Below are positions 10,280 through 34,674 of a DNA stretch of 64,000 nucleotides, piece by piece. Under the pieces are notes generated by a model. That model was not told the DNA's origin. It was given only the letters and a program-made list of their open reading frames with translations, and did not search any database. How positions within the stretch are numbered: the first letter of the stretch is position 1; each line of letters opens with the position of its first letter. The position numbers and the translations under genes are program-made. The DNA comes from a virus: the IMG/VR virus record IMGVR_UViG_3300045988_132703; one strand, written 5' to 3'.

Positions 10280-10293
10280 AAGGAGGGAGTCAC

Positions 10294-13235: not shown

Positions 13236-13246
13236 GGTAAAAATCA

Positions 13247-14185: not shown

Positions 14186-14754
14186 TTTATGACGAATTAA
14201 CTGGCGAAGTAATTGAGAATCCAGACCTTACAAAAGGCAAAGTTTATACTGAAGAAAAAGTTATTGGGCATAAAGAAGCTCAACGAGTTCTTCTTGAAGG
14301 TAGTATAACTAATTTTGACCCAGAGGGCTGTTGGATGGAGATACCTGCCGAGGATATAACTGAAACTATTGAGAAATATCACAAGTATACTATCGACGAA
14401 TTGATTGAATAGTAGTAGACTGCGATTAAACCAAATGATACTTCAATTTCTCAAGAAAAAAAACTTGAGCTATTGCTTAATGCTATACCTACTGCCACAT
14501 ATCCAACTGAATCACCCAAGGCAGGCTATAAATGGTCTCCAACGTATAATAGCGAAGCGGGATTTGGTTGGGAAATGGTAATTGATCCTGACGCTTTTGG
14601 CACCCAAGAAAGACCTTTATATTGGAAAGAGGGTATGGAAGTTAAAGCTGGATATTATTATAAAGATGAAAGTGGGCGACTGATGTTTGCTGTTGAGAAT
14701 GGAGTACCTGATTATTTTGGTTAGTACACTTTTATGGAAGAAATATTTAGTTAA
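14182..14754 (+). CDS. hypothetical virion protein
   Basis: Track ORFs 14182-14412 and 14473-14724 share a frame; three consecutive TAG 14410-14418 and TAG 14722; TAA 14752. Confidence 0.55.
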
Positions 14755-14767
14755 GAGATATAAGTTT

Positions 14768-15216
14768 ATGGGTACTTTATCTAGGTGGGGCTATAATGCC
14801 CTTACCTCGTTGGAGATATTTATATAAAGATTCGAAGTGAAAATTCTTCGAATCTTTGGTAGGGGACAACTTGGGAGAAACTTGGGAGCGGACGGGCGTT
14901 AATGAGTGCAGATAGTAGCCATGGAGTTGGAACTACGGTTGATAGTGGATTGCCGGATATTCAAGGTACTCATAAGATTGGCTGGGGAGATAAAAGTGGC
15001 GGCGGTGTCATTATATCTTCTAATTCAACTACTGGTGCTTTTTATTCCGCGCGTGATGGCAGTGCTATTTTTAGTGCGGGAACTTATGAATCGACTAGTG
15101 ACAACCATAGAAATTAGGTTGGTTTTAAAGCTAGTAATTATAATTCTATCTATAACAAAAGCTCTATAGTTCAACCTCCTGCTTTCTTCTGTTATTTTTG
15201 GAAACGATTAAGTTAA
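14768..15216 (+). CDS. tail-collar-domain paralog 1 (frame-disrupted)
   Basis: ATG 14768 frame stops at 14825; the paralog-like sequence PYLVGDIYI..WQGTTWEKLGSGR continues in the -1 frame from 14797 (CCC run 14799-14801); TAG 14860 and 15115; TAA 15214. Confidence 0.45.
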
Positions 15217-15229
15217 GGAGTATAATATT

Positions 15230-15721
15230 ATGGCATCTTTAGCACGGGGAGGGCTAGATTTAGATAAAATCTGGCCTATTGGTTCAGTCTATATAAGTGT
15301 CAATTCGACTAACCCTAGTAGTTTATTCGGCGGGAAATGGGAGCAGCTAAGTGGAAGATTTTTAATAGGAGTTGGAACTGGAACAGCTAACACTACCAAC
15401 TTTTGGGGTGATGATAGCTGGGATCATCTAATTGGAACAGTAGAAGAAAAAGGCGGATAGGCCTGGCATACATTAACTGAAGCAGAGTTACCAGTTATTG
15501 ATGGTTCTTTTCGTACTCCAGTTGTAGCAAACCACAATACTTATGGCGTTAGAGGTCATGCTTATGGTTCGAATTGGTCTGATAATAGAACTACTAATGA
15601 ATATTCAAGTGGTAGTGGAGCTGTTATGAATTGGGGCTATGGCTATAAGTTTGGCGGAGGTCAAGCCCATAATAATATGCCTCCCTATCTTGCCGTTTAT
15701 ATGTGGAAAAGAGTGTCATAA
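15230..15721 (+). CDS. tail-collar domain protein
   Basis: PIGSVYISV..LFGGKWEQLSGRFLIG...HTLTEAELP...GGGQAHNNMPPYLAVYMWKR; TAG 15458. Confidence 0.75.
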
Positions 15722-15742
15722 TATGTTCTAAGGAGCATTATT

Positions 15743-16187
15743 ATGTCAAATGTAGGAAAGATGAGTCAAGTGCTTAATGCTTATCCAGTTGGCTCGATTT
15801 ATATGAGTGTGAATAGTACGAATCCTGGTGAGTTATTTGGTGGTACTTGGGAACAGATTCAAGGAAGATTTTTACTTGGATAGGGTTCGGGTTATTCTGC
15901 GGGCGCGACTAGCAGAGAAGTGAATCATGTTTTGAGCATAAATGAAATGTCAGAGTGTAATCACTGGGTTCATATCCTTGCTAAAGGTTATAGCAGATGG
16001 GGCAGTGATGGCTATTCAAATGGCGAATATTCAACAAACTAGCTGGAGTAACCCGCCAGCTTATGTCGGTTCTTATACAAATACCACTCATATTTTAATG
16101 GGACAAACTGGGAAAGATGGTGGTAGTCAATCTCATAATAATATGCCGCCTTATCTTGTAGTATATATCTGGAAACGAATAGCTTAA
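15743..16187 (+). CDS. tail-collar-domain paralog 3 (frame-disrupted)
   Basis: N-terminal part (YPVGSIYMSV..FGGTWEQIQGRFLLG) in frame 2 ends at TAA 16049; C-terminal motif GGSQSHNNMPPYLVVYIWKR is in the +1 frame (track ORF 15942-16187). Confidence 0.45.
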
Positions 16188-16195
16188 TCATTAAT

Positions 16196-16224
16196 TTGAC
16201 TTTTCTTTCTACTGATGATATAAT
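16196..16224 (+). promoter_or_regulatory. sigma70-type promoter, early-cassette-like, inside the late module
   Basis: TTGACT-17 nt-TATAAT with TGa extension. Confidence 0.55.
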
Positions 16225-16256
16225 AAAATAGTAATCAAGTATTAAGGATGATTTTT

Positions 16257-16611
16257 ATGGGGTAAATTCCTAATTTTAGTGCCCCCCCCCCCAGATAGTA
16301 GTTTAACGGTATCTGGTAAGGCAGCTGATGCCAAAGTGGTGGGCGATAAAATTAACATAATTAATTAGATACTTTCTTCTTTGCAAACAACAAAAATTAC
16401 GTCTGGAGATTGGACTTGTATTACTCTTGATTGTGGAATAAAAATGTGTTTTTTCAAAGGACAATATGGAAATACTGATATAACAAGATCTGAGGGTTCT
16501 CTTTATTGGGCGTCTTTTTCAAAGGCTCTTCCAGCTGGATTTTTTCTGAATACTCTTGTGTTTAGTGTCAGTGTGAAGTAGAATCTGGTTGGGCTTTATA
16601 GTTAGTTTTAA
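16257..16611 (+). CDS. small fibre-like protein containing a poly-C tract (start frame uncertain)
   Basis: Frame 1 open 16252-16611 (TAG 16366, 16579, 16603); LTVSGKAADAKVVGDKI motif; ATG 16257 is one nt out of frame (GGGG run); C11 at 16282-16292 encodes PPPP. Confidence 0.4.
16282..16292 (+). repeat. homopolymeric C11 tract
   Basis: Eleven consecutive C read directly in the sequence. Confidence 0.9.
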
Positions 16612-16755
16612 ATCCTAATAGTTCAACTAGCACATTAAATGGTTGGTTTTATACAAGCTAACCTAAAACAGTTAATCCTTATATTCATATTTTTTGTATA
16701 GGAATTTAATTTTATTAAAATTCTTAAATTTATTTCATATAAAATTCTTAATGTT

Positions 16756-16788
16756 AGTGCTCTCCATATTGGAGAGCACTTTTATTTT
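16756..16788 (+). terminator. rho-independent terminator
   Basis: AGTGCTCTCCA-tat-TGGAGAGCACT then TTTATTTT. Confidence 0.65.
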
Positions 16789-16818
16789 AGAACAGAATTT
16801 TTATAGGAGGAAATCGCA

Positions 16819-19176
16819 ATGGACATACTCCTTTTCGGGACTCTTCGAAAATATATTGACGACACTCTTCAAGGTGCTGGTGCGCTTAAAGGTGAAAAAG
16901 GCGACCGCGGAGAAAAAGGTGTTCAAGGTCCAAAAGGTGATAAAGGTGATAAGGGAGACACCGGCCCGCAAGGACTTCGTGGTATTCAGGGCTTAACTGG
17001 CGCTACTGGTGCGAAAGGCGAGCGTGGTGCGCAAGGTGTCCAAGGATTGACTGGACCTCAAGGTATTCCTGGCGTACAAGGTATCCAAGGTCCAAAGGGC
17101 GAGAAAGGTGACAAAGGCGAAACCGGTCCCATTGGCAAACGCGGTGTTCCTGGAGTCAATTATAATATTAAATATTTTTTGTCTACTCTTAACGAATTAA
17201 ATGCCATCACTCCTGCTACTGGTTATGACGAAGCTATTTTTGCTTACGTAGCAGAAAACAAATCAATCTACTATTCTTATGAAAGCTCTCCTTGGACTTT
17301 TTTCTCTGATGCGTCTAATCTTTAGTTTGCGCGCGGAGAGCAAGGTGAGCAGGGTCCAAAAGGTGAGAAAGGCGACAAGGGTGACCGAGGCATTCAAGGT
17401 ATCCAAGGACCTCAAGGTATCCAAGGTCCTCAAGGTCTTCAGGGCATTCAAGGTCCAAAGGGTGATAAAGGTGACAAAGGCGACAAAGGCGACTCGCTTA
17501 CTTGGAATGAAGTTCCAGAAGCTGCGCGTAAAGAACTTAAAGGTGAAAAAGGCGATAAAGGCGATACTGGCGATTCTGGTGTTTATTATGGTCCAACTGA
17601 GCCAGAAATTAATCAAGAAAAACTTGTTTGGATTGATTCATCAGTAGAAGAACCGGCTACTACAATTGACATTGCTAACATTCCTGGACTTCAAAAGGAA
17701 CTTGATTCTAAAGTTCAACTCCCCTCTAAAATTGAAAATGGTACTCAGCTATTTCCCGTTGCAACTTCAAAAGGTACGTCATGGGTCGCTCTTGAAGAAA
17801 CTGTCAACGGAATTGTTAGTGAATGTGTAAATATCATTGTGCGTGGCACAGATAATGCAACTCTTAAAGGCACTGAAATTTATCTTCATGACGTAACAGC
17901 TAACACTATATCTACTTTTGAATGGAATGGGACCAGTTTGACTGTTTATGTTTTAAATGGACATAAATATTTTATCAGTGGCGCCGAAGTTGAAGGATAT
18001 GAGCCTGTTGCGGATAGTTTACAATATATTGCGCGAGCTGCATAGACTCGTACAATCATTTTATCTTATCCTTGCTCAGAAGAAGCAGAGTATGGTATTC
18101 GATTCTTAATTGAATCATCAGATCCGTCATGCGAGCGCGTTGTAATTAAGAATAATATTACAACTTATGGTGAAGATACTGGTTTAGTGGCTGCTATTGG
18201 TAGTAAACTCGTTATGCCCAAGAATAGTTTTGATGATATTTATCCTTGGTCAGATATTCGCATTGTAACCGACTCTGATAATGCTGCCGAGGCCGCGCAA
18301 ATAATGGTTAAAATTCCAAAGTATTATGTCAAGGTTACTGTTGATGATACCTATGAAACTTGGATGATTAGTCGCTACAAAAAAGCAGGTTATCGTGTCG
18401 CAAAAATGTTTGCTCGTCCTGACGGAACCGAAGCAGACTATTATGAATATGCTCGTTACGAGACTAGTGATACCAATCGTTCTCAAACTGGCGTTACTCC
18501 TCAAAATTCAACCACTATTGAAGCATTTAGAACTGCCGCTCTTGAGTTAGGTGATAATTGGCATCTAGCTGGACTTGCAGACCGTACTGATGGACTTCAG
18601 ATGCTAATGACTATTGAATTTGCTACTCGCAATATCCAGTCAATAGCAGAAGGTTTGGTTAATTCTAGGACTGTTTCTGATTGCGGTTTGACTGATGGTT
18701 TAACCATTACCGAAGATTCAAAGGGAATTAAGCCTTATTCTGGTATTGTTAAAAATGCTTTTTCTTATCGTGGAATTGAAAATCCTTACGGTAATTTACT
18801 TGAATACGCTGATGGTATTATTTTGAACAATTCTCGTGTGTACTATTGCGACGATTGGACTCGTTGGAGTAATTCAATTAATTCAAGTTACGTTCAAGCT
18901 GTTGGCACGATCCCAACTTTAAGCGGATTTATTACTAAATTGAATTATAATGAAGCTAATCCTTGGATGCGTTTGCCTAGCGAAGTAATTACTGCTGGCG
19001 ATAGCGATAGTAATTATAGCGACTATTATAATGCTCCAACCGCAGATTATACCTTGCCAGTTTATGGTGGCGGTTATTCTACCAATTTGCGCGCGGGCTT
19101 ATTCCACTGGAATTGTACTCGTACTTTTAGTGAAACAAATAGAGATATTGGTTCTCGTTTGGCTCGTAGTTTTTAA
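16819..19176 (+). CDS. collagen-like tail fibre protein
   Basis: Track ORFs 16819-17325, 17839-18045 and 18187-19176 share a frame; TAG 17323 and 18043; two Gly-X-Y tracts ([19 protein letters not shown]...). Confidence 0.75.
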
Positions 19177-19188
19177 GAGGTGATTGAA

Positions 19189-19512
19189 ATGAGAATATCA
19201 AAAGCAGCAAGCGAAATTCGTCCTCAAAATACTATTGAGCAATTATCAGCTAATCGTTTTTCTTGTCGCATTTGCGCGGACGTTGTTGAAACTGTTGATG
19301 GTTTTAATTTCACTAGTTATCGAGATTCATTCAGCGCATCTTCTTATCCAGAATTACTTGCGAATATCATTCATACTCGTTATACTTATGATGACGAAAA
19401 TAATTTTATTAACGATTATATTGCGGAAGGCATGACTAAAAAATATAAAGACTACCGTGATTTTGTTGCTTGGGCTAAATCCCAAGCAAAATCTTATTTT
19501 AAGGAGGACTAA
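19189..19512 (+). CDS. hypothetical protein
   Basis: Track ORF; ATG 19189 lies 7 nt after AAGAGG. Confidence 0.55.
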   Translation: MRISKAASEIRPQNTIEQLSANRFSCRICADVVETVDGFNFTSYRDSFSASSYPELLANIIHTRYTYDDENNFINDYIAEGMTKKYKDYRDFVAWAKSQAKSYFKED

Positions 19513-19515
19513 CCT

Positions 19516-20175
19516 ATGCCTATAATGCAGTTATATGATAAAAATACAAGCACTTGGCAAGAAGTTCCTGCTTTAAAAGGTAGTGCCGCGAAAGTAGAAA
19601 TTGGCGCAGTAAAAACCGTACCAGCTACAGAACAAGCAAAAGTAACCAATGTTGGCACAAATACTAATGCAATTTTTGATTTCCAACTTCCTCGCGGCAT
19701 GGATGGTATTACTCCCATTCGTGGTACTGATTACTGGACAACCGCGGACCAATAGCAAATCATTAAGGACGTATCTGATAAAATGAATTATCAATTTACA
19801 GATTTGATGAATGCTATTCAAAATAAACCAATCACTTACATTTTTGATGATAAGACTTCTCTTGATGGGGCACTTAATTTAGCTGATAATACTGTCACTT
19901 ATAACGGAAAAGAGTGTAAGTTAAATCCAGGTGATATGTTCCTTTTGGTTTCGATTAATGAACCAGACTATTGGTTTGGAGAGGATTCTAATGGCGAGAA
20001 ACTCCATGAGCTTGACGCGCGTAAAATAGAATTAACTGAATATGTTAAATCAAGTCAATTTCAAGTGATGGATATTGATGCTTATAATGCTATTGCTACA
20101 AAAGATCCAAATACTTTTTATTTCATCATTGAAAAATCAGATTCGACTTCAAATGACGGGGAGGCAACAATCTAA
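19516..20175 (+). CDS. hypothetical virion protein
   Basis: Track ORFs 19516-19755 and 19783-20175 share a frame, joined by TAG 19753; shares ITPIRGTDYWT motif with 21262-21540. Confidence 0.6.
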
Positions 20176-21008
20176 TGCCTATCTTCATTGACAATAAACG
20201 AGTTTAGCTTATCTACAAAGGTGAAACTCCTATTGAGGAAATTCATACTCAAAATGCGACTATTTGGACTCCAAAAGCAGATTTTTCTACTGCTTCGTGG
20301 GCTGAAATTAAAAAGTGGATTGAAAAGGGTACTTGGAAAGAATAGAATTGGAGCGAAGGAGATACTCATACTATTCATATGAAGGATGGCCATATTCTCA
20401 CCGCTCGAATTCTTGCAATATATGATGGCCGCGAGGAAAAAGCAACTTACAAAGGTCAGATTGATAGAGATGAGAATAATGCAAAACCGCACATGGTTCT
20501 TGAACTAGTCACTTGCTTGCCGGATTCTTATCCTATTAATTCAGAGCCAGAAGTAGAAAACACTCATCAATCTTGGGGTACTTCAAACCTTTACAAGTTA
20601 ATGTCTCCTGGCGGCGAAATATATGATAATCTGCCAAATGAACTCCAATCAATGATGATTCCTGTAATGAAAAAATCTGGCATTAGTGGCAAGATCCAAA
20701 ATTCAAGTCCTGAAATCACCAAATCCTATCTTTTCCCGCTCTCAATTCGAGAGTATGTCGCAAAAGACAATATTACAAGCGAAATTAATAATAGCGAGGG
20801 TTCTCAATATCAATACTATATTGATCATCCTAGTCACGTTGTTAAAAAAGAATATGCTGGCGATAAAAATATCGTCTATTACACTCGTTCCGCGATGCAA
20901 GCTGAAAATGAACTTTATGAATACTTTTGGGCTATTGGCGGTGCGAATAATTATGCAACTTATCCATCCTATATTAGTTTGGGAACAAGTTTTGCATTTT
21001 GTATTTAA
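20175..21008 (+). CDS. hypothetical virion protein
   Basis: TAATG overlap; TAG 20205 and 20343 read through into track ORF 20379-21008. Confidence 0.6.
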
Positions 21009-21018
21009 GGAGGTTCTT

Positions 21019-21195
21019 ATGGCTTTTAGCACTTTTAAACAAAAAGCAGATAGTTATTATGAGTTTCTTTGTGATGAAGAAACTGACTTATAGAACTTGC
21101 CAACCGATTGTGCTCCGGGGTCTGTTGCCTTCGTAGTGAATGGTGCGCTTGTTTATATACTTAATAATAAAGAATAGTGGGTCTCATTATTGTGA
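21019..21195 (+). CDS. hypothetical small protein
   Basis: AAGGAGG then ATG 21019; TAG 21091 and 21175; TGA 21193; followed by a hairpin terminator. Confidence 0.4.
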
Positions 21196-21202
21196 TGATT
21201 AG

Positions 21203-21250
21203 GCCGCAATCAAAAAAATAGGTTCTTTCTCTTGATTGCGGCTTTATGTT
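21203..21250 (+). terminator. hairpin terminator (long loop)
   Basis: GCCGCAATCAA...TTGATTGCGGC then TTTATGTTT. Confidence 0.45.
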
Positions 21251-21261
21251 TGGTGATATGA

Positions 21262-21540
21262 ATGAAGTTATCTGGAAATATTACTAGTGAAAGTTCTATA
21301 AGCGGTTCTATTATGTCTGGAGATATTTCTGGGGCGCTTTCTAATCCTTTAGCTATTGGACCATCAGCTTACGAAGTTGCAGTTGCTAATGGATTCGATG
21401 GAACTGAACAAGAATGGCTTAAAAGTCTAAAAGGATATACTCCAATAAGAGGGGTAGATTATTGGACAAAAGCCGACATAGAAAAAATAAAAATGGAACT
21501 TGAAGATTATATTAACGCTTTATTAAAAGACAAGGAGTGA
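21262..21540 (+). CDS. tail-fibre-associated protein
   Basis: Track ORF; SAYEVAVANGFDGTEQEWLKSLKG motif, paralogous to 4033-4545. Confidence 0.6.
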   Translation: MKLSGNITSESSISGSIMSGDISGALSNPLAIGPSAYEVAVANGFDGTEQEWLKSLKGYTPIRGVDYWTKADIEKIKMELEDYINALLKDKE

Positions 21541-21544
21541 AGAT

Positions 21545-23560
21545 ATGGATTTAATAAATTTAGCCCTTGTGTAGAAAGCTGTTCGAGATGCTCACGTTGA
21601 TCACATCGGTCCTCAGGGTCCAAAAGGTGATAAAGGAGATAAGGGAGATTCGCTTACATGGGATGACTTAACCGAAGAACAAAAAGCATCACTAAAGGGC
21701 GAGAAAGGCGATAAAGGAGATAAAGGTGATCAAGGTCCTCAAGGAATCCAAGGAATCCAAGGAATCCAAGGAATCCAAGGAGAGAAAGGCGATACTGGCC
21801 CCCAAGGAGAGAAAGGTATTAATGGCACTAATGGTCTTTCTGCTTTTGAAGTATGGCTTGAAACCAATCCCGGAAAAACCGAAGCTGATTTCTTTTTAGC
21901 AATAAAAGGAGATAAAGGCGATAAAGGCGATAAGGGAGATACTGGTGAACAAGGAATCCAAGGAGAAATTGGACCTCAAGGTATCCAAGGAATCCAAGGA
22001 GAGAAAGGTGAGAAAGGTGAAACTGGCGAACAAGGACCTAAAGGCGAATAGGGACCACAAGGCATTCAAGGCATATAGGGTATCCAAGGCGAGAAAGGTG
22101 AAACTGGTGATACTGGACCACAAGGAGAAATTGGACCTCAAGGACCTCAAGGAGTCCAAGGAGAACGTGGAGAGCCTTTCTCAATAAAGAAAATCTACTA
22201 TTCTATTGGTGAGATGAATTCGGATTTTAGTAATACTGATGTTAATATTGGAGAATTTGTACTTATCAATACAGGAAATGTAGAAGACGAGGATAACGCT
22301 AAGTTATTTGTTAAAACCGAGACAGAATATTCTTTTATAACTGATTTATCTGGCACTGCTGGTATTCAAGGTCCTCAAGGAATCCAAGGTATTCAAGGTC
22401 CTCAAGGAATCCAAGGTATCCAAGGAATCCAAAGAGAGAAAGGAGATACCGGTCCGCGGGGAGAAACTGGGCCCGCCGGTTCTGACGGTAAAACCCCGGA
22501 ATACGGCGTTGACTACGGCACGCCGGAGCAGATTGCCGGGATTGCCCAGCAGGCGTCGGAGATTTTGAAACCGGATGTTAATCAGATAAAGGATGATATT
22601 GCTGGGCTGAAAGACTCCAAACAGGACAAGCTTATTGCCGGTACTGGAATCACGATTGCAGAGGATGGGAAGACCATTTCAGCGTCTGGAGGCGAAATCC
22701 TGATTGCGCACAAAGTGTGGGCAGACTGCTACATTGAATTAACCCCAGTGGAAATCGACTACGAAAACTATACAATTACTGTAGCCGATGCATCTGGTGT
22801 GCCGCTGGAAATATCCGGAAGTTGTGTTGATTATATATCTATTACAGACTGGTCCGGGAAAAATGCAACACTTGATATTGCTCCAGTCGAATTGTTTCCA
22901 GTTCAGCTTTTTGCTATCCATGTCGGTGATAACAGGTTACAGTTTTACAATTCGCAGAAAGCGCTAATCCGATTTACAGCCAATGACAACGTTGATATCA
23001 ATCGGTTCAAGATTTATGTTAAGAAGCAAAATGCAACTAGATTATCAGTAGCAAATCTTTATCAAAATCACGCATATCGCATTGTGATGGTTAAACGCGG
23101 ATTTAATCATTTTGTAAGTGGATTCAGTATCAATAATAGTAATAATCGTGATTGGGGCTATTCGTATGGCAATAAGGGTGGAGTTAAATCGTTTGGACTT
23201 GGTTCCAACAACGCAGGCAATTCGTTTTCCTCTACTCAGGTAAATCTCTACGAAACATTTTCTTTTCGTAGTATACCTTATGGTGACACTGTTACGTGTT
23301 CGTTTTTTCCATCCATCATCGATGTCGAAATAGTACCGTCTAAAAACGGAAGTGTATTCGAGCATTGGCTTCATTGGAGAATGTCGTATGTGCAGAGAGG
23401 CAGTAGCACCGTTAAAGAAATAGAATACAGATATACTACAGGAACGCTATTTATGCCATATGAAATTGGATCGATTGTGTCACAATCTGGCAATGCAGGC
23501 AATTATTTTGGGAATGGTACGGAAATGTTAGTGTTTGATAAGGGGGAATGGGTTGAATGA
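21545..23560 (+). CDS. collagen-like tail fibre, chimeric (AT-rich recoded N-part, GC-richer C-terminal domain)
   Basis: ATG 21545 in the same frame as track ORF 22214-23560; TAG 21572, 22049, 22076; long GIQ/GEK Gly-X-Y tracts; composition shifts at about 22440. Confidence 0.75.
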
Positions 23561-23742
23561 TTGTCGAACAGATTGATGCAAGAACAGGCAACGTGGCACT
23601 TTTTGAACAGCCTGACAAGCCTGTTATTGAATGCGATATGGAAGTAATTCCGAAACCCACCCCGGAGGAACGGCTGGACGCGCTGGAAACTACCACGGAT
23701 GACATGATTCTGCTGATGGCAGAACTGATTGGAGGGAACTGA
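23557..23742 (+). CDS. hypothetical protein
   Basis: Track ORF; ATGA overlap; inside the GC-richer segment. Confidence 0.5.
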   Translation: MIVEQIDARTGNVALFEQPDKPVIECDMEVIPKPTPEERLDALETTTDDMILLMAELIGGN

Positions 23743-23744
23743 TT

Positions 23745-23900
23745 ATGAAAACACTTTCCGCGCTGAAACTGAAAATCATGGTGCGGGCGTTCCGCATCCG
23801 CATCAAAAACGGTGAGGATTTTGCTGACATCGCCGCAGACTATCCGGCTCTGACTGCTGACGATTTGGAATCCATCCGGGAAGCTCTGAACGTGGCTTAA
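23745..23900 (+). CDS. hypothetical small protein
   Basis: 51-codon ORF MKTLSALKLKIMVRAF...; GC-richer segment; below the track length cut-off. Confidence 0.4.
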   Translation: MKTLSALKLKIMVRAFRIRIKNGEDFADIAADYPALTADDLESIREALNVA

Positions 23901-23938
23901 TCCGATAAAGCAGACTTTATGTGATTAAGGAGTAAACC

Positions 23939-24088
23939 ATGGCAGACACCGCCCATTATCAAACGGACTTAAAACTGGAAGAAATGGAAAAGCGGCTGTC
24001 TGCCATTTATTCCAGGGCGGAAAAGGAAATCGGGAAACGATGGAAAGAGTATTTGGCGGAATCGCAGGAAGAAATTAACGAACTTTAA
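23939..24088 (+). CDS. 49-codon ORF resembling the N-terminus of a head-morphogenesis (SPP1 gp7-like) protein; probably a truncated remnant
   Basis: MADTAHYQTDLKLEEMEKRLSAIYSRAEKEIGKRWKEYL...; ends where GC-richer sequence ends, just before terminator 24110. Confidence 0.3.
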   Translation: MADTAHYQTDLKLEEMEKRLSAIYSRAEKEIGKRWKEYLAESQEEINEL

Positions 24089-24109
24089 AAAGCTTATAAA
24101 CTGGCAAAA

Positions 24110-24140
24110 AGAGCCTAGAATAAAATCTAGGCTCTTTTTC
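24110..24140 (+). terminator. rho-independent terminator fused to cassette promoter
   Basis: AGAGCCTAG-aataaaat-CTAGGCTCT then TTTTC. Confidence 0.7.
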
Positions 24141-26204: not shown

Positions 26205-26288
26205 GCGACTGTGGCCCAGTGGACAAAGGCGGGTGCCTGCAAAGTACTTAATTTTTTATCGTTGGTTCAAATCCAACCAGTCGCTCCA
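26205..26288 (+). tRNA. tRNA-Cys (GCA), unusual 12-nt AT-rich variable region
   Basis: Acceptor GCGACTG/CAGTCGC; anticodon arm GGTGC-CTGCAAA-GTACT (two G.U); T arm GTTGG-TTCAAAT-CCAAC; encoded CCA. Confidence 0.7.
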
Positions 26289-26409
26289 GAACGGAGTTCC
26301 CTACTAGATTCCCAATGGGAATTGAACTTCACGGTTTGGTTGAGTTAGTCCGTCGTCCTCGGTATTGAGTAGACAATCAAGAGGGAAAGATACGAAAACT
26401 CTTTATTAT

Positions 26410-26485
26410 GCGCGAGTAGTCGAATGGCATAGACACTACGCTAAGGACGTAGGATTTGTGGGTTCAAATCCCACCTTGCGCACCA
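26410..26485 (+). tRNA. class I tRNA, anticodon AAG by canonical numbering (identity uncertain)
   Basis: Acceptor GCGCGAG/CTTGCGC, A73, CCA; anticodon arm CTACG-CTAAGGA-CGTAG; T arm GTGGG-TTCAAAT-CCCAC; 5-nt variable loop. Confidence 0.65.
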
Positions 26486-26503
26486 ATAGAAAGGAAAGTT
26501 GCT

Positions 26504-26734
26504 ATGGGCAAATTAAAAATGACCAAGATAGTTTATGGTCGGGCAATGGTTGGAACTGATGCTTATAAAAAGAATTTATCTAGTAAGCGTTCAAAGTGTA
26601 ATGACCAGAAGAGAAAACGAAACTATCGTTCAGCCACAATCAAAACCAATCTGACTTGGGAACAGAAATTGATTCGATGGTTTGAAAAAGTTGAGAAATG
26701 GTTTTTAGATTATTTTGAAAGGTTTTTCGATTGA
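26504..26734 (+). CDS. hypothetical basic protein
   Basis: ATG 26504 after GAAAGGAAAG; upstream part of track ORF 26456-26734 overlaps a tRNA. Confidence 0.5.
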   Translation: MGKLKMTKIVYGRAMVGTDAYKKNLSSKRSKCNDQKRKRNYRSATIKTNLTWEQKLIRWFEKVEKWFLDYFERFFD

Positions 26735-27024
26735 TGAAAATTTTGACTGCACCAGTTATTGATTATGGAGTTCTTGAGGACGAGCTAGTTGACGCTGGTA
26801 TTCTCAAGAGAGAAGATGTTGAAGAAGATTATTCATACATTCTCGGTTTGCTTTTTGCAGATAATTGGAGTTACGATTGTTATTTGAAACTTTATCTCAA
26901 TGACAAGCCTATTCCAAAGAATCTTGACATAAGTGCGACTGTTTATCTGAAAAAGTGCAATGAGATTTATGCTTATTTGCGCGAGAAGGCTCCAGGTTAT
27001 CCGTTCATTTTGATTGAAACTTAA
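26731..27024 (+). CDS. hypothetical protein
   Basis: Track ORF; overlapping start. Confidence 0.55.
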   Translation: MMKILTAPVIDYGVLEDELVDAGILKREDVEEDYSYILGLLFADNWSYDCYLKLYLNDKPIPKNLDISATVYLKKCNEIYAYLREKAPGYPFILIET

Positions 27025-27037
27025 AGAAAGGATTAAA

Positions 27038-27448
27038 ATGAGTAAGAAGAAAAAGAATACTCCTGTAAGTGATTGGGTCTATGACGACTTAATGGAATTT
27101 TACGAGTTTTGCTTTGGCGGCACCCACGTTTTTCGTTCAAACAAAGCTAAAAAGTACCTTTTTGAGATTCTTACTCACGATTCTAATTGGACTGTTGAAA
27201 ATGTTCATAATGAATATTATGTTCTTTATCACAATCCAGTTTATCAACCTCGTGCGAAAATTCATATTCAAGCAAAAGATACTAATTTGATTTGGCTTTT
27301 GTGGATTGCATATACGCATGATTTCTACAAGTATAACAAACTTCCTTTTGAAAAAGGAAAAGGCAAAGACTATTGGCGTTTCGTTGAAGATTTTAAACGT
27401 TATCTTACTTATAAAGGTCTTCATTGGACAGAAGATGACTTTCAATGA
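27038..27448 (+). CDS. hypothetical protein
   Basis: ATG 27038 after AAAGGA; track ORF 27014-27448. Confidence 0.55.
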   Translation: MSKKKKNTPVSDWVYDDLMEFYEFCFGGTHVFRSNKAKKYLFEILTHDSNWTVENVHNEYYVLYHNPVYQPRAKIHIQAKDTNLIWLLWIAYTHDFYKYNKLPFEKGKGKDYWRFVEDFKRYLTYKGLHWTEDDFQ

Positions 27449-27449
27449 T

Positions 27450-27478
27450 TTGACTTTTGATAGATAATATGCTATAAT
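27450..27478 (+). promoter_or_regulatory. early cassette promoter
   Basis: TTGACT-17-TATAAT, TGc extension. Confidence 0.7.
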
Positions 27479-27484
27479 ATTTAT

Positions 27485-27635
27485 AGAAAATGAGATTTAT
27501 TCGTAGATAAGAATTAAAAATCGCTAAAGACAATAATGTTGCTCTAATGTGGGAACGTGAAGGTTACGGTATATCCGATACTGTTAAACGAAATCCCTAT
27601 GAGCTTGCGTGAGATTGAAACTGCTCACCGAATGA
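27485..27635 (+). ncRNA. candidate promoter-driven non-coding transcript
   Basis: Full cassette promoter 27450-27478 is followed by only 6- to 20-codon ORFs until the next cassette. Confidence 0.3.
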
Positions 27636-27636
27636 A

Positions 27637-27665
27637 TTGACTTTTTATGATTTCTATGATATAAT
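27637..27665 (+). promoter_or_regulatory. early cassette promoter
   Basis: TTGACT-17-TATAAT, TGa extension. Confidence 0.7.
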
Positions 27666-27671
27666 ATTTAT

Positions 27672-27853
27672 AGAAAATGAAAGACAGAAGCAGCAAATAC
27701 TTCTAACAACTTGAACTTAAAATTCAAATATTGGTAAGAAGCTGTCTTGATGTGGGTTGAAATGAGATTCTAAGACGATTTCTGCAAACTTTTAATGTTT
27801 TGATTGAATTATTAGATGATAAAAACGAAAAAGTCGTCTTGATTTTTTATTAT
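27672..27853 (+). ncRNA. candidate leader or small RNA upstream of tRNA-Asn
   Basis: Cassette promoter 27637-27665, no ORF over 9 codons; paired segments AGACAG/CTGTCT and AAGACGA/TCGTCTT. Confidence 0.3.
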
Positions 27854-27928
27854 GGATGGTTCGTACAACGGTTAGTACAAGAGACTGTTAATCTCCTAAT
27901 GGGGTTTCGACTACCTCACCGTCCGCCA
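27854..27928 (+). tRNA. tRNA-Asn (GTT)
   Basis: Acceptor GGATGGT/ACCGTCC; D arm GTAC-AACGGTTA-GTAC; loop CTGTTAA; T arm GGGGT-TTCGACT-ACCTC; CCA. Confidence 0.8.
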
Positions 27929-27963
27929 AAAGCGATAACAGAACGCTTCTTAATATCCCATTG

Positions 27964-28027
27964 CCAATAGGGGAGCATTGAGTAGCTATCAATGAGATTA
28001 AGGTGCCTCCACACCGGCCTTATATTT
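27964..28027 (+). repeat. conserved structured leader upstream of GIY-YIG gene, copy 1
   Basis: CCAATAGGGGAGCATTGAgTaGCtATCAATGAGATTAAGGTgCcTCC..ACCGGCCTTATATTT; nested stems GGAG/CTCC and CATTGA/TCAATG. Confidence 0.7.
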
Positions 28028-28043
28028 AATTATTCTGGAGGGA

Positions 28044-28961
28044 ATGGTTATGAAAGTTATTTGCGGGATTTATAAAATTACTAATCAAGTTAATGGTAAA
28101 TGTTACATTGGACAGAGCGTAAATATCGCTCGTCGATGGAGAGACCATAAAAAGACAAGTTCTGATGCAAGCTATAATGCTTATGATAGTGTGTTGCATA
28201 AAGCATTTAGAAAATATGGAATAGAAAATTTTTCTTTTGAAGTATTAGAAGAATGTTCTCAAGAAAGTTTAAATGCTAAAGAAATTTATTGGATAAATTA
28301 TTTTAATTCAGATGATTCTTAGAGAGGATATAATTTAACTCCTGGTGGAGATAATGTTGGTTAGAAATGTCGAAAATTAACTGACGAGCAGCTTTAGGAA
28401 TTAAAGCGTCTTTTAAAAACTACATTAATATCTCAAACTGATTTAGCAAAGTAGTTTAATATTAGCCAAATGGCAGTTAGTGATATTAATAGAGGAATAA
28501 GTTATCCAGATTTAAATGAAGATTATCCTTTAAGAGATTCTAATGCAATTCGAGGTTGGAATTTGCATCCAGAGAAGAACGGATTAAAAACAGAATCAAA
28601 AGTTGATAAATCTAATAAGTCTAGTAAATCTGAAGAGTTTATTAAAAGTAAAGATAAAGATAAACCTTTTCCAAAAGTAAAAATTAAAAATATAAAAATT
28701 TGTCCTGTTTGTGGAAAGGAATACGATAGTAAAGCAAAAACTTGTTCTGTTAAATGCGGAAGAATTCGTGTTAAAAAAGTTAAAATTGTTCCTAAACGGA
28801 GTGCTTTAAAGTACTTAATTCGCAATTACTCGTTCGAATGGATTGGTCGTTAGTTTGGTGTAACTGGAAATGCAATAAAGAAATATTGTGATAAATTTGA
28901 TTTACCAAGAACTAAAAAAGAAATTAATTCTTACTCGAATGAAGAATGGAAAAAGATTTAA
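28044..28961 (+). CDS. GIY-YIG homing endonuclease (Seg/I-TevI-like) with Zn-ribbon and HTH tail
   Basis: CGIYKITNQVNGKCYIGQS..RWRDHK, GYNLTPGG; 5 in-frame TAG (28320, 28362, 28395, 28452, 28851) join track ORFs 28044-28322 and 28470-28853; TAA 28959. Confidence 0.8.
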
Positions 28962-28985
28962 AATTTGCCGGCTTGCCGGCTTTAT

Positions 28986-29060
28986 GCATCTGTAGTTCAA
29001 TGATAGAATAACAAACTTTTAATTTGTATGATGCCAGTTTGACTCTGACCAGATGCACCA
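28986..29060 (+). tRNA. tRNA-Lys (TTT)
   Basis: Acceptor GCATCTG/CAGATGC; anticodon arm ACAAA-CTTTTAA-TTTGT; T loop TTTGACT; CCA. Confidence 0.75.
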
Positions 29061-29121
29061 TTAGCTCGTCTATCATGTGTAGAAAGAGTCTCTGAAACCG
29101 TTTATACGGTTTCTATTTTAT

Positions 29122-29207
29122 CCCTCATTAGACCATAAGGATTGGGGCTGGACTGTAAATCCAGTGTGTTTTACGCCGGGATGGTTCGATACCATCATGA
29201 GGGACCA
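29122..29207 (+). tRNA. tRNA-Tyr (GTA), class II
   Basis: Acceptor CCCTCAT/ATGAGGG; anticodon arm CTGGA-CTGTAAA-TCCAG; long variable arm; T arm GATGG-TTCGATA-CCATC; CCA. Confidence 0.85.
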
Positions 29208-29230
29208 TTTATTTTAAGAAAGGATATATT

Positions 29231-29515
29231 ATGGACTTTTTTGTTGGAAATTTTGCTGACTGGTTCAATAGTTATGCTAGGAATAAGTTATTTCGTCTTT
29301 GGTATAAGGAGGATGAAAAACTTGGTCTGGATGATGGCTATGATGGAGTTTGTCAGTATGTTTATCTGCGACAAGCGATCAATCTTGGTAACGATTGGTT
29401 GATTGGTTATGCTGTATTTGATGAACGAGAAAAAGATAATATGTATCCTAGTTTGAATTGGGCTAGATTGAGTGAAATTGATTTGGCCTGGTACAAAGAT
29501 GATGAGGAAAAGTAA
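29231..29515 (+). CDS. hypothetical protein
   Basis: Track ORF between tRNA-Tyr and tRNA-Asp. Confidence 0.55.
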   Translation: MDFFVGNFADWFNSYARNKLFRLWYKEDEKLGLDDGYDGVCQYVYLRQAINLGNDWLIGYAVFDEREKDNMYPSLNWARLSEIDLAWYKDDEEK

Positions 29516-29530
29516 TTTTCCTCTTTATAA

Positions 29531-29614
29531 TGTCCTGTAGCGCAAATGGATAGAGCGCCACCCTGTCACGGTGGAGGTATATTATTGCCGGTTCGAACCC
29601 GGTCAGGACAGCCA
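29531..29614 (+). tRNA. tRNA-Asp (GTC), unusual 12-nt AT-rich variable region
   Basis: Acceptor TGTCCTG/CAGGACA; anticodon arm CCACC-CTGTCAC-GGTGG; T arm GCCGG-TTCGAAC-CCGGT; CCA. Confidence 0.75.
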
Positions 29615-29904
29615 GATGCAATTCGGAAGGATTGCGAGTCTTGCGCCTAGGAGATAAGGCGTCAAATTGGATGATTTGTGACCTAAGCAGGTCGTTAAAA
29701 GGCTCAGTTTGGTAAAGACTGTAAAAAATTACCAGCCGAGAGAGGATGGATTTGAGGTAAACTACCACCGGCGCTTAGCGATATGTGGCTTAGTCATTTG
29801 TATTCGGCTTAATACAAAGAAAACGAAAGTAACCTTGAACGCATAGGAGTTCTAAAACTCTATGGACTAGACGTGAGGGATAGTCTGAAAACTCCCTCTT
29901 ATAT
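29615..29904 (+). ncRNA. structured non-coding spacer between tRNA-Asp and tRNA-Gly
   Basis: 290 nt with no plausible ORF; many local hairpins (GCGCC/GGCGT, GACC/GGTC, TGGTAA/TTACCA, GAGGG/CCCTC). Confidence 0.3.
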
Positions 29905-29979
29905 GTGCGAGTGGTATAACGACAATTATCCTTGCCTTCCAAGCAAGGGACGAGGGTTTAACTCCCTTCTCGCACACCA
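29905..29979 (+). tRNA. tRNA-Gly (TCC)
   Basis: Acceptor GTGCGAG/CTCGCAC; anticodon arm CTTGC-CTTCCAA-GCAAG; T arm GAGGG-TTTAACT-CCCTT; CCA; D loop lacks GG. Confidence 0.65.
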
Positions 29980-30464
29980 TTAATCAAAGTTTCTAATTAG
30001 GTTCAATCCTCCCAGAGGATTATAGCTGAAGTGGAGCAATGCCTGGGCTAGACACGCATTGTACGGTACACTGAAACACCAAATAGACCGCGGTATAATA
30101 GGTGTTATAATGCCGAATACTTAATTAAAGTAAAAGAACACCAATCTTTGATTAAATTGGGCTGGAGTTTATCTCCTTGGTCCACCAATCCAGTGGAATT
30201 TCTACTGGCGGCTTTATGACAGGCACGTAAGAAATCTGTCCCTCTGAATAGATACTTGCATAACAGCAAACTTTTCTAGTTGGAAGAATAAAAGTATTAC
30301 TTGATAATACTTTGATCGCTCGCGCATTCAAACTAGAGGTATCTAGTAATAAAAGAGGTCTGGAATGAATGTGTGAGTGTAGATTCTCAGTAATTACAGA
30401 ATGAGGATCGGTTCTTCACCGCCTAAGAGTGAACCCTCGCGGGAGTGGGTATCTCCCGTTTCAT
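29980..30464 (+). ncRNA. structured non-coding region downstream of tRNA-Gly
   Basis: 485 nt with no plausible ORF; composition less AT-rich than flanks; hairpins e.g. AATCCTC-CCA-GAGGATT. Confidence 0.3.
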
Positions 30465-30537
30465 GTCTCCTGAGCTGGGAACTCACGGATGTTTCATAAG
30501 CAACCTATGCACAGTTCAATTCTGTGAGGAGACACCA
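30465..30537 (+). tRNA. tRNA-like element, possible CAT anticodon (non-canonical D region)
   Basis: Acceptor GTCTCCT/AGGAGAC, A73, CCA; T arm CACAG-TTCAATT-CTGTG; candidate anticodon arm GATGT-TTCATAA-GCAAC; D arm does not fold canonically. Confidence 0.35.
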
Positions 30538-30587
30538 TTTACAGTTATAGCGGTGGCTGTAACAGAAATTTTTATCGTTTTAACAAA

Positions 30588-30617
30588 GGCCTCGGAGTAA
30601 AATCTGAGGTCTTTTTT
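30588..30617 (+). terminator. terminator fused to cassette promoter
   Basis: GGCCTCGGA-gtaaaa-TCTGAGGTC then TTTTTT. Confidence 0.7.
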
Positions 30618-30618
30618 A

Positions 30619-30647
30619 TTGACTTTAAGACAAATTTATGATATAAT
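30619..30647 (+). promoter_or_regulatory. early cassette promoter
   Basis: TTGACT-17-TATAAT, TGa extension. Confidence 0.7.
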
Positions 30648-30678
30648 ATTTATAGAAATCAAGAAAGGAAGTTGGAGA

Positions 30679-30912
30679 ATGACAGTTAAAGATTTGCTCA
30701 ATGTACTGTGCAAGTATCAGTGGATTGAGATTGCTGGCGATTTTTATAGTGAAAGTCCTCATTTCACGGGAACTGTAAAAGATTTAATGGGCGAAGATGA
30801 ATATGAGTTCCTTTGCGCGCAGAAAGTTAATGGAATATTTTCTGAAGCTGAAGATAAAAGCCATTATATTCTTGTTTATTATAATGATTCTGAGTTAGGA
30901 CAGGTGTGGTAA
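30679..30912 (+). CDS. hypothetical protein
   Basis: ATG 30679 after AAAGGAAGTTGGAG of the cassette leader. Confidence 0.55.
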   Translation: MTVKDLLNVLCKYQWIEIAGDFYSESPHFTGTVKDLMGEDEYEFLCAQKVNGIFSEAEDKSHYILVYYNDSELGQVW

Positions 30913-31130
30913 TGATTTTTAATGGAAAAGAAGTTGGAGAACTTCATCATCTAACCTTTCGCCATAGTAATTTTCCTAATAAGCAAAATTTTGCTCCAAC
31001 TGATTTATTTGGCGTAAAGAAATTCTTACGCGATCATCCAAAAGTTAATGTGCTTGATTTTTCGCAATTCTGCTCGGATAACACAGTCTATACCACTGTC
31101 TGGTATACTGTCCCGCGCAATCAAAATTAA
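30912..31130 (+). CDS. hypothetical protein
   Basis: TAATG overlap; track ORF 30906-31130. Confidence 0.5.
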   Translation: MIFNGKEVGELHHLTFRHSNFPNKQNFAPTDLFGVKKFLRDHPKVNVLDFSQFCSDNTVYTTVWYTVPRNQN

Positions 31131-31149
31131 ACTCAAAAGGAGGAGCATT

Positions 31150-31341
31150 ATGGAAATGTTTGCTTGGACTTTGTATTACACTTATACCAAGGATGGTAAA
31201 TCTACTCGACGAGTTTCTACCATTAATGCCCCTACTCTTGGACGAGCATTTCAGATCTTACGTCATTATATGATTAAAAATTCTGACGAATATATTACTG
31301 ATCTTTGCGCAGAGCGCAAGAAAATTAAGAAAGAGGATTAA
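31150..31341 (+). CDS. hypothetical protein
   Basis: AAAGGAGGAG then ATG 31150. Confidence 0.55.
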   Translation: MEMFAWTLYYTYTKDGKSTRRVSTINAPTLGRAFQILRHYMIKNSDEYITDLCAERKKIKKED

Positions 31342-31342
31342 A

Positions 31343-32481: not shown

Positions 32482-32488
32482 TTTTAAG

Positions 32489-32519
32489 TCAATAGGTATC
32501 TAGCCTATTGACTTTTTTA
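32489..32519 (+). terminator. terminator overlapping -35
   Basis: TCAATAGG-tatctag-CCTATTGA then CTTTTTT. Confidence 0.55.
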
Positions 32520-32536
32520 TTTATATATGGTATAAT
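32508..32536 (+). promoter_or_regulatory. early cassette promoter
   Basis: TTGACT-17-TATAAT, TGg extension; -35 overlaps the terminator stem. Confidence 0.7.
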
Positions 32537-32569
32537 ATTTATAGAAAATGAGAAAGGAAGAATGATGAG

Positions 32570-34663: not shown

Positions 34664-34674
34664 TATTATAGAAA

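Follow-up and report, generated by a model that had tools for sequence, protein, structure and literature searches.

In-frame TAG codons preserve the Gly-X-Y register of a collagen-like tail-fibre gene in a human-gut phage and are probably read as glutamine

Recoding of TAG to Gln is well described in gut phages, where it is concentrated in structural and lysis genes and accompanied by suppressor tRNAs (bioRxiv 10.1101/2021.08.26.457843; PMC7886860). Borges et al. assigned code 15 to the gut-phage clades Lak, crAss-like, Jade, Sapphire, Agate, Garnet, and Topaz (bioRxiv 10.1101/2021.08.26.457843). Some crAss-like groups are recoded at TAG or TGA (PMC7886860), and for two crAss-like phages LC-MS/MS showed that Gln is inserted at TAG (PMC9523058). 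The Zeta crAss-like phages have genomes of 155-177 kb with many tRNAs, including CTA suppressor tRNAs, show amber suppression in some members, and carry DGRs that target tail-fibre proteins (PMC12386605). Gut phages with an alternative code also make up the phAss-1 group, in which the phAss-1 genome is 136 kb long (PMC10607447).

Here we analyzed a stretch of 64,000 nucleotides from the IMG/VR virus record IMGVR_UViG_3300045988_132703, hereafter the window, with a focus on its collagen-like tail-fibre gene. The close relatives of the window come from human-gut metagenomes, measure ~176-180 kb, and share 86-93% nucleotide identity with it, the fibre block being syntenic. The lineage resembles the phages of Borges et al. 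in the concentration of in-frame TAG in structural genes, the TAA/TGA terminators, a tRNA(CUA), a large tRNA complement, the human-gut origin, and the large genome (~176-180 kb in the relatives). Additionally, the cumulative GC skew turns at ~54 kb in the window, similar to the pattern of bidirectional replication described for Agate (10.1101/2021.08.26.457843). Unlike in those phages, the homing endonucleases, and in the relatives the radical-SAM-like genes, are heavily recoded, and recoding is therefore not confined to late genes. The window shares with the recoded crAss-like phages the reassignment itself, as well as structural proteins that break up under code 11 but become whole again with code 15 (PMC9523058; PMC7886860). 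The lineage also resembles the Zeta group in genome size, in its many tRNAs and CTA suppressor tRNA, and in the DGR that two relatives (L001 and L030) carry on the collagen fibre, all of which are likenesses of genome features and not of sequence; unlike the Zeta phages, the window contains no DGR cassette. The phAss-1 group is similar as human-gut virome phages with TAG within many ORFs, but phAss-1 was not among the megablast or tblastn matches in the phage collection, and its 136 kb compare with ~176-180 kb in the relatives.

A megablast search of 17 kb of the window (6785-23560) against 50,697 phage records returned no match, and tblastn with one conserved gene reached Enterocloster, Clostridium, and Desulfovibrio phages and unclassified gut-virome records at only 28-46% identity. 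Judged by these negative megablast and protein matches, no evidence points to crAss-like membership of the phage. The similarity to cultured phages is weak and limited to proteins, and mostly concerns phages of Clostridia. No capsid, terminase, portal, or RNA-polymerase hallmark gene was found in the window, and the stretches that we examined revealed neither RF2 nor an aminoacyl-tRNA synthetase.

The fibre gene lies at 21545-23560 on the + strand and is preceded by a ribosome-binding site, AAGGAG, at 21532-21537. With TAG as a sense codon, it translates into 671 codons followed by a final TGA at 23558, contains no in-frame TAA or TGA, and reads TAG three times, as codons 10, 169, and 178 (21572, 22049, and 22076). 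Counting tracts of at least 4 triplets, the protein contains 66 Gly-X-Y triplets, which are arranged in two N-terminal tracts (21608-21652, 5 triplets, and 21698-21841, 16 triplets), an uninterrupted 30-triplet tract (21908-22177), and two distal tracts of 9 and 6 triplets (22352-22495), all on the + strand. The protein matches Pfam Collagen PF01391 with E=1e-31 (cutoff 27.2 bits) and PHROG tail and tail-fibre families with E values of 4e-54 to 1e-20, and the neighbours of the gene are large fibre-like proteins. By its tracts, profile match, and module position, the gene product is thus classified as a collagen-like phage tail fibre. It resembles other such fibres (PF01391; PHROG 819, 6320, 5073) in the Gly-X-Y tracts, the short globular spacers, and the non-collagen C-terminal domain, while it differs from them in an orphan C-terminal domain and in Y-position Gln residues of which some are TAG-encoded.

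Both collagen TAGs are located in the 30-triplet tract. Specifically, codon 169 (22049-22051) occupies the Y position of Gly-Glu-TAG in triplet 16, and codon 178 (22076-22078) occupies the Y position of Gly-Ile-TAG in triplet 19. The earlier note had claimed that the Gly register runs through both TAGs, and code-15 translation indeed gives a single tract at 21908-22177, with 14 triplets after the first TAG and 11 after the second in unchanged register. The codons quoted there are also correct, namely GGT GAA CAA at 21944-21952, GGC GAA TAG at 22043-22051, and GGC ATA TAG at 22070-22078 followed by GGT ATC CAA. The TAG at codon 10 (21572-21574), which belongs to a conserved N-terminal segment, had been overlooked. 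After the last TAG, the frame stays free of TAA and TGA for 493 codons, while the two off-frames of the gene contain 17 and 58 TAA+TGA triplets; taking the lower of these two as the background (2.5% per codon), such a run would still occur by chance with only P ~4e-6. Chance is therefore excluded as the source of the open frame through the TAGs.

The same pattern extends over the whole fibre block (82-23560, + strand), which contains 39 in-frame TAGs in 6805 codons and whose ORFs all end in TAA or TGA. We aligned the window at the codon level with four loci from three relative contigs (11,019 codon pairs), and 44 codon pairs have TAG in both partners, so the TAGs are conserved and are not errors. 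The second collagen-like tail-fibre gene (16816-19176, + strand) has in-frame TAGs at 17323 and 18043, both of which are also TAG in L001 and L030. We further surveyed 90 phage loci and the window for Gly-X-Y tracts with 10 or more triplets, which gave 239 tracts. TAG occurs in register 20 times, in 5 sequences, and no other stop triplet does; neither TAA nor TGA was found within the register of any of the 239 tracts.

These observations bear directly on the possibility that the TAGs are real stops, marking a pseudogene, separately translated fragments, or sequencing or assembly errors. The public call under the standard code yields only 448 aa, starting from Met224, and the window has no suppressor tRNA, both of which favour such a reading. 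However, the register and the TAA/TGA-free frame pass the TAGs, with a chance of ~4e-6 or less, the 44 TAG/TAG positions are conserved in independently assembled relatives, and TAG is the sole stop triplet within Gly-X-Y tracts. Real stops would moreover sever essential fibre genes, such as the one at 6809-10279 with its 11 TAGs. We consider the probability of this reading to be close to nil. The claim of the earlier note that the TAGs must be translated is thus upheld by the continuing register and frame, by the number of in-frame TAGs in the block, and by the TAG/TAG pairs with the relatives.

Next, we used the alignment with the relatives to examine which residue replaces TAG. There are 32 one-sided TAG pairings, which are not independent since the same site can be counted in more than one relative, and 24 of them are with CAA or CAG, with Gln codons making up only ~3% of the aligned codons. 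The other eight partners are AAA (2), CGC (2), CGG (1), TGG (1), TTC (1), and TCA (1). Across the 11,019 codon pairs, TAG is never paired with TAT, TAC, AAG, GAG, TTG, or TCG, that is, with no Tyr, Glu, or Leu codon and not with Lys AAG, all of which are one base from TAG; the single-base neighbours otherwise pair at most once each (TGG once; Ser only as TCA). TAG and CAA also interchange at two Y positions between the orthologous collagen fibres of L001 and L030, which are 94.6% identical: GE-TAG in L001 corresponds to GE-CAA in L030, and GV-CAA to GV-TAG. Similar exchanges occur inside the window. The fibre gene at 6809-10279 contains an internal repeat with copies ~90% identical, in which copy 1 has CAA at 7016-7018 (SSLQNIVDKI) and copy 2 has TAG at 7922-7924 on the + strand (SSL*NIVDKI), and the relative L081 has CAG at the latter site. 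Two paralogues of the window likewise read GIYKITNQVNG and GIYKITN*ING, with Q in one and TAG in the other. TAG-site alignments from an all-against-all BLASTP of the window fibre proteins were mostly uninformative because identity was low.

The composition of the collagen tracts points in the same direction. Q is the commonest Y residue of the gene at 21545-23560 (29 of the 66 triplets), and Y is Gln in 15 of the 16 sense triplets in which X is Ile. All 29 Gln codons of the tracts stand at Y, as do both collagen TAGs, and GEQ occurs twice in the same 30-triplet tract as the Gly-Glu-TAG of codon 169. Among the possible residues, Gln, which the earlier note had called the obvious reading, is the one best supported by the comparative data, through the 24 of 32 mismatch pairings with CAA or CAG, the swaps at collagen Y positions, and the internal repeat.

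Decoding of TAG as a residue other than Gln, for example pyrrolysine, Lys, Arg, Trp, Tyr, Leu, or Ser, would agree with the 8 of 32 mismatches that involve non-Gln codons. One of these sites is codon 10 of the gene at 21545-23560, where L001 and L030 have CGC (Arg) and the paralogue at 16816-19176 also has Arg. The 75% share of CAA/CAG among the mismatch partners, the lack of Tyr, Lys-AAG, Glu, and Leu partners in the alignment, and the position of the collagen TAGs where Gln dominates (29/66 at Y overall, 15/16 after Ile) argue against such decoding, as does the Gln found by proteomics in other TAG-recoded gut phages (PMC9523058).

We also examined the tRNA genes. The window carries clusters of tRNA genes at 26205-38409 on the + strand, comprising 14 found by ARAGORN and a tRNA-Glu(UUC) found by Rfam, and none of these 15 tRNAs of the 64-kb window has a CUA anticodon according to ARAGORN and Rfam. 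Two candidates for a suppressor were rejected: the Rfam-only tRNA at 35508-35583 (Rfam match 35509-35578) is the tRNA-Glu(UUC), and a 'cta' candidate at 30395-30467, called by ARAGORN at the ps70 setting only, was not supported by the Rfam tRNA model with a cutoff as loose as E<=10. Relaxed ARAGORN settings produced at least 117 calls, mostly spurious. In the relatives, an identical 76-nt tRNA(CUA) was found by exact match in 9 contigs of IMG/VR and in 8 from metagenomes, assemblies that may overlap; eight of the nine IMG/VR contigs were recovered independently by synteny. The gene is located ~15 kb upstream of the equivalent of the window start in all nine IMG/VR contigs, and every near-complete relative encodes its own copy. 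The radical-SAM-like genes adjoining it are also heavily recoded.

The tRNA(CUA) of the relatives scores 31.5 bits against the Rfam tRNA model (gathering threshold 29) and has a U1-A72 pair, which also occurs in tRNA-Met and tRNA-Asp genes, together with G73 and an encoded CCA. ARAGORN labels it 'tRNA-Pyl' from the anticodon alone. tRNA-Pyl has atypical D- and T-loops, whereas the tRNA(CUA) shows a canonical GG-containing D-loop AAUGGUUA, a canonical T-arm GGTTCGATTCC / GGUUCGAUUCC, and a normal T-loop. Pyrrolysine decoding was rejected on the basis of this D-loop and the T-arm GGUUCGAUUCC, and no pyl genes (pylS, pylBCD) were found among the subset of ORFs scanned. The identity of the amino acid cannot be read from the tRNA(CUA) sequence, which shares 62% identity with the phage tRNA-Gln(UUG) and 60% with tRNA-Met and tRNA-Phe, a marginal difference. 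Taking the anticodon-based label and this ambiguity together with the codon pairings and the canonical D-loop and T-arm, we regard a residue other than Gln as highly improbable.

The usage of TAG differs among the gene classes of the window. TAG accounts for 0.16 of the Gln-type codons (CAA+CAG+TAG) in the fibre block at 82-23560, compared with 0.04 in the remaining + strand genes between 25 and 53 kb, which have 6 TAGs in 5484 codons. In the five TAG-densest genes, of the homing-endonuclease class, TAG makes up 28 of 89 Gln-type codons (0.31). These genes are a GIY-YIG homing endonuclease at 28044-28961 on the + strand (5 in-frame TAGs) and the genes at 37451-38296 (8), 35607-36344 (HNH, 5), 321-1391 (4), and 48126-48563 (6). 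Recoding is thus skewed to structural genes, with the homing endonucleases as an additional recoded class.

This unevenness also matters for the question of whether the host, not the phage, reads TAG, in which case the phage would match a code-15 host or one with a chromosomal amber suppressor. The absence of a tRNA(CUA) from the window is consistent with decoding by the host, and protein similarity, weak at 28-46% identity, gives only a loose pointer to Clostridia phages. We know of no bacterial lineage in which TAG means Gln. Against host decoding, the near-complete relatives all encode their own perfectly conserved tRNA(CUA), and the TAG share of Gln-type codons varies strongly by gene class (16% in the fibre block and 31% in the homing endonucleases, but 4% in the other + strand genes). 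Uneven TAG use is the pattern reported for phages that switch code in standard-code hosts (10.1101/2021.08.26.457843). We therefore rate decoding by the host as highly improbable.

Together, we put a probability of about 0.92 on the reading that the window derives from a human-gut tailed phage of ~176-180 kb that uses code 15, the fibre TAGs being decoded as Gln by a phage tRNA(CUA) encoded outside the window. Under code 15, TAG would be a Gln codon and TAA and TGA the sole terminators, and the gene at 21545-23560 would yield a full-length collagen-like tail fibre of 671 aa with its three TAGs read as Gln. As suggested by the relatives, the genome of the phage itself probably carries the tRNA(CUA) upstream of the window, ~15 kb from position 1, and this tRNA would be charged with Gln. 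By analogy with other recoded phages, late TAG-containing genes may be fully translated only after expression of the suppressor. The TAG-to-Gln recoding described here is code 15 as already known from gut phages, to which it adds one lineage; it extends the established picture and opens no new question.

The C-terminal part of the fibre differs in character from the collagen tracts. From about 22440 onwards, the sequence becomes richer in G+C; the change falls at the junction motif GKTPEYGVDYGTPEQIAG, which is common to other fibres such as P0002 and P0104. The non-collagen C-terminal domain (22496-23557, + strand) is TAG-free and G+C-richer, and is presumably receptor-binding. A search of 5.8 billion proteins found no homologue of the domain past the junction motif other than its own protein; only the short motif recurred elsewhere, and the best non-self match spans only 26% of the query. 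The cassette at 21075-24137 is the exception to the synteny of the fibre block with the relatives.

If the reading is true, the Gly-X-Y register would reveal the reassignment of stop codons without any annotation. The collagen register offers an unusually clean proof of sense TAG from sequence alone, and it flagged other recoded phages among the 90 loci. The public standard-code call of the fibre, P0001 (448 aa), lacks the N-terminal third and all three main collagen tracts, and the standard code breaks the neighbouring fibre genes into up to 12 pieces. Code 15 must therefore be used when host range or receptor binding is analyzed in gut phages of this kind.

Recoding in this lineage is heaviest in the selfish homing endonucleases, which reach 13 TAGs in 223 codons, and this TAG density may mean that the mobile elements depend on the altered code or take their timing from it. 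We offer only tentatively, as a doubtful reading, the wider view of an undescribed human-gut lineage of ~176-180 kb in which TAG would mean Gln beyond the late genes and the endonucleases would be locked to or timed by the code. The DGR template in the relatives itself contains a sense TAG.

The collagen-like tail-fibre gene 21545-23560 (+) translates into 671 codons plus a terminal TGA, with no in-frame TAA or TGA before it. It contains three in-frame TAGs at codons 10, 169 and 178 (nt 21572, 22049 and 22076), the first of which was overlooked in the earlier note. An AAGGAG motif lies 7 nt 5' of the ATG, directly behind the TGA of the previous ORF, and a start at this ATG is credible. The gene encodes five Gly-X-Y tracts of 5, 16, 30, 9 and 6 triplets (66 in total). 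The uninterrupted 30-triplet tract (21908-22177, +) includes the last two TAGs, codon 169 being the Y residue of its triplet 16 and codon 178 that of triplet 19. The codons quoted in the earlier note are correct, namely GGT GAA CAA at 21944-21952, GGC GAA TAG at 22043-22051, and GGC ATA TAG at 22070-22078, followed by GGT ATC CAA; its claim that the Gly register runs through the TAGs also holds, with 14 triplets after the first and 11 after the second, all in register. The two off-frames contain 17 and 58 TAA+TGA triplets, and the calculated probability that 493 codons would follow the last TAG by accident without a TAA or TGA is therefore ~4e-6 or less. The Gly-X-Y continuity through the TAGs is confirmed, and chance is not its cause.

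Close relatives of this phage are found in IMG/VR, mostly as contigs from a single IMG dataset (3300045988). Near-complete contigs are 176-180 kb long. They share 86-93% nucleotide identity with the window and are syntenic over window 1-21 kb and 24-28 kb, with the exception of the window cassette 21075-24137, which includes the fibre gene and in place of which the relatives have a 6.3-kb cassette. That the TAGs are true stops, or the product of a pseudogene or sequencing error, is argued against both by the Gly register and by the conservation of TAGs in independent assemblies. This reading is further opposed by a survey of 239 Gly-X-Y tracts, each 10 triplets or longer, from 90 phage loci and the window: TAG is the sole stop triplet inside the register, occurring 20 times in five sequences, while TAA or TGA occurs there zero times. 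The unbroken register and the TAGs conserved in relatives support the earlier proposal that the TAGs are translated.

To assess which amino acid is read, we aligned the window genes codon by codon with four loci from three relative contigs (11,019 codon pairs). TAG is conserved as TAG in 44 pairs; where it stands on one side only, 24 of the 32 partners are CAA or CAG, Gln codons making up ~3% of aligned codons, and the other eight are AAA and CGC (two each) and CGG, TGG, TTC and TCA (one each). Among the 11,019 pairs, TAG was never paired with its single-base neighbours TAT, TAC, AAG, GAG, TTG or TCG. Despite partial non-independence, as some sites were counted in two relatives, the alignment shows TAG exchanging with Gln codons as a synonymous codon would. 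Evidence is most direct in the relatives' collagen fibre (10315-12738 in loci L001 and L030; mutual identity 94.6%), in which one Y position has TAG in both (GI-TAG) and two others swap, GV-CAA facing GV-TAG, and GE-TAG in L001 facing GE-CAA in L030. Similarly, ~90% identical repeat copies in gene 6809-10279 read SSL-CAA-NIVDKI at 7016 and SSL-TAG-NIVDKI at 7922, and two GIY-YIG paralogues within the window read GIYKITN-Q-VNG and GIYKITN-TAG-ING. In the tracts of 21545-23560, Gln is the commonest Y residue (29/66 triplets) and, where X is Ile, occupies Y in 15 of the 16 sense triplets; each of the 29 CAA/CAG codons, and likewise each of the two tract TAGs, is at Y. The gene's single discordant datum is the codon-10 TAG, which aligns with Arg (CGC) in the relatives, an unremarkable difference. 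An amino acid other than Gln is opposed by the range of codons paired with TAG, by the context at the Y positions and by the canonical shape of the candidate TAG-reading tRNA(CUA). On these comparative grounds, TAG is established as a sense codon in the lineage that evolutionarily behaves as a Gln codon, and the one-sided pairs and Y-position swaps bear out the Gln reading favoured earlier.

The gene closes a tail-fibre-type block (82-23560, +) with PHROG tail and tail-fibre family matches (E down to 4e-54) and a Pfam Collagen match (E=1e-31). With TAA/TGA alone as stops, this block resolves into long contiguous ORFs with 39 in-frame TAGs, for example 11 in 6809-10279 and 5 in 10294-12432. We compared TAG as a fraction of Gln-type codons (CAA+CAG+TAG) among gene classes: it is 16% in the block, 31% in five homing-endonuclease-like genes, and just 4% in all other + strand genes at 25-53 kb. 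Four of the five are GIY-YIG or HNH genes (321-1391, 28044-28961, 35607-36344 and 37451-38296); the fifth (48126-48563) is unassigned to a family. These most TAG-dense genes (28/89 Gln-type codons in the window) are scattered among tRNA genes, and a relative's GIY-YIG gene (locus L083, 1482-2153) has 13 TAGs in 223 codons, a pattern suggestive of selfish elements that have adapted to the altered code or are confined by it. Two radical-SAM-like ORFs of L083 with CxxxCxxC motifs (4131-5498 and 7054-8334), just downstream of its tRNA(CUA) (3081-3156), carry 3 and 7 in-frame TAGs; the lineage's recoding therefore extends past virion genes. Gln codon preference inverts from CAA 168/CAG 43 in the fibre block to CAA 64/CAG 92 in 25188-53377, so that the TAG-rich block is also CAG-poor. 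G+C over the whole window is 38%. Cumulative GC skew peaks at ~54 kb, with gene orientation mostly + before and mixed or - beyond, and replication of the phage genome probably starts or ends at this point.

None of the window's 15 tRNAs has a CUA anticodon. Walking upstream in the relatives, we observed an identical 76-nt tRNA(CUA) gene in all eight syntenic loci examined, ~15 kb ahead of the point matching window position 1, and exact-match scans found it in 9 IMG/VR and 8 metagenome contigs, including human-gut ones. Its score against the Rfam tRNA model is 31.5 bits (gathering threshold 29). The D-loop and T-arm are normal, the T-stem has a one-base bulge, and U1-A72, G73 and an encoded CCA are present. 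ARAGORN's 'Pyl' label derives from the anticodon alone. From its uniform conservation in the relatives, we infer that this tRNA is present in the window phage's own genome. A suppressor supplied by the host, or a code-15 host, is unlikely, since each relative has a phage-borne tRNA(CUA) and TAG use is biased by gene class. Host enzymes would charge the phage tRNA(CUA) with Gln, and this tRNA would compete with RF1, so that full-length fibre would be made only after its expression. Such a timing model has been proposed for recoded gut phages, in which alternative coding is concentrated in structural and lysis genes (10.1101/2021.08.26.457843), and Gln at TAG was demonstrated by LC-MS/MS in two crAss-like phages (PMC9523058). 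Differences in TAG use among gene classes fit this model; set against it, the homing endonucleases and, in relatives, the radical-SAM-like genes beside tRNA(CUA) are also recoded.

All window tRNAs encode their CCA end. Several unusually long ones (84-92 nt; 26205-26288, 29531-29614, 36843-36928 and 36569-36660) have extended variable regions, although their assignments are Cys, Asp and Thr. A 92-nt 'tRNA-Glu(CUC)', whose variable arm is long and class-II-like and whose position 33 is C, was not recovered by Rfam. tRNA-Glu(UUC) at 35508-35583 was missed by default ARAGORN and found by Rfam (30.3 bits) and relaxed-threshold ARAGORN. Directly behind tRNA-Gly(UCC), an ORF-free stretch of ~650 nt (29980-30640) contains several strong local hairpins, closes with a terminator-like hairpin and T-run (30588-30620), and matches no Rfam family at significance; the stretch may encode a structured RNA of an unclassified type.

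The fibre protein begins with a conserved segment of ~20 aa that includes codon 10, followed in order by collagen tracts with short spacers, a ~58-aa globular insert (67% identity to the relatives' fibre), two further collagen tracts, the junction motif GKTPEYGVDYGTPEQIAG and a presumed receptor-binding C-terminal domain of ~350 aa (22496-23557). Among 5.8 billion proteins searched, this domain has no detectable homologue except its own protein; of the distal fibre, only GKTPEYGVDYGTPEQIAG recurs elsewhere, in the unrelated fibres P0002 and P0104, and likely marks a recombination joint. G+C climbs from ~22440, at this junction, and the 3' part of the gene is TAG-free, which fits modular exchange of receptor-binding domains there. 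Relatives L001 and L030 carry a diversity-generating retroelement (VR 12576-12722, TR 13079-13225, RT ORF 13412-14722) whose target is the C-terminal end of the collagen fibre, itself TAG-recoded. Of the TR-to-VR mismatches, 11/11 (L001) and 15/16 (L030) lie at adenines of the TR. TR and VR each include an in-frame sense TAG, and its adenine is unmutated in both genomes. This cassette is absent from the window, where 21075-24137 stands in its place.

The TAG use is that of genetic code 15, already described in human and animal gut phages (10.1101/2021.08.26.457843; PMC7886860; PMC10607447; PMC12386605). The window contains no capsid or terminase gene, megablast of 17 kb of it against 50,697 phage records gave no match, and the matches of one conserved gene, most of them to Enterocloster and Clostridium phages, are all distant (28-46% identity); we therefore count the lineage as an addition to the known code-15 phages. 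As an internal proof that TAG is sense, the collagen register is elegant, but it reveals no new biology. Its practical point is annotation, the public standard-code call for this fibre (P0001) being a 448-aa fragment from Met224. TAGs also occur in collagen Gly-X-Y tracts of two unrelated IMG/VR contigs, L006 (11 in 10067-15508) and L076 (three in 1711-2139, at X positions), which are probably independent TAG-recoded phages caught by the register test.
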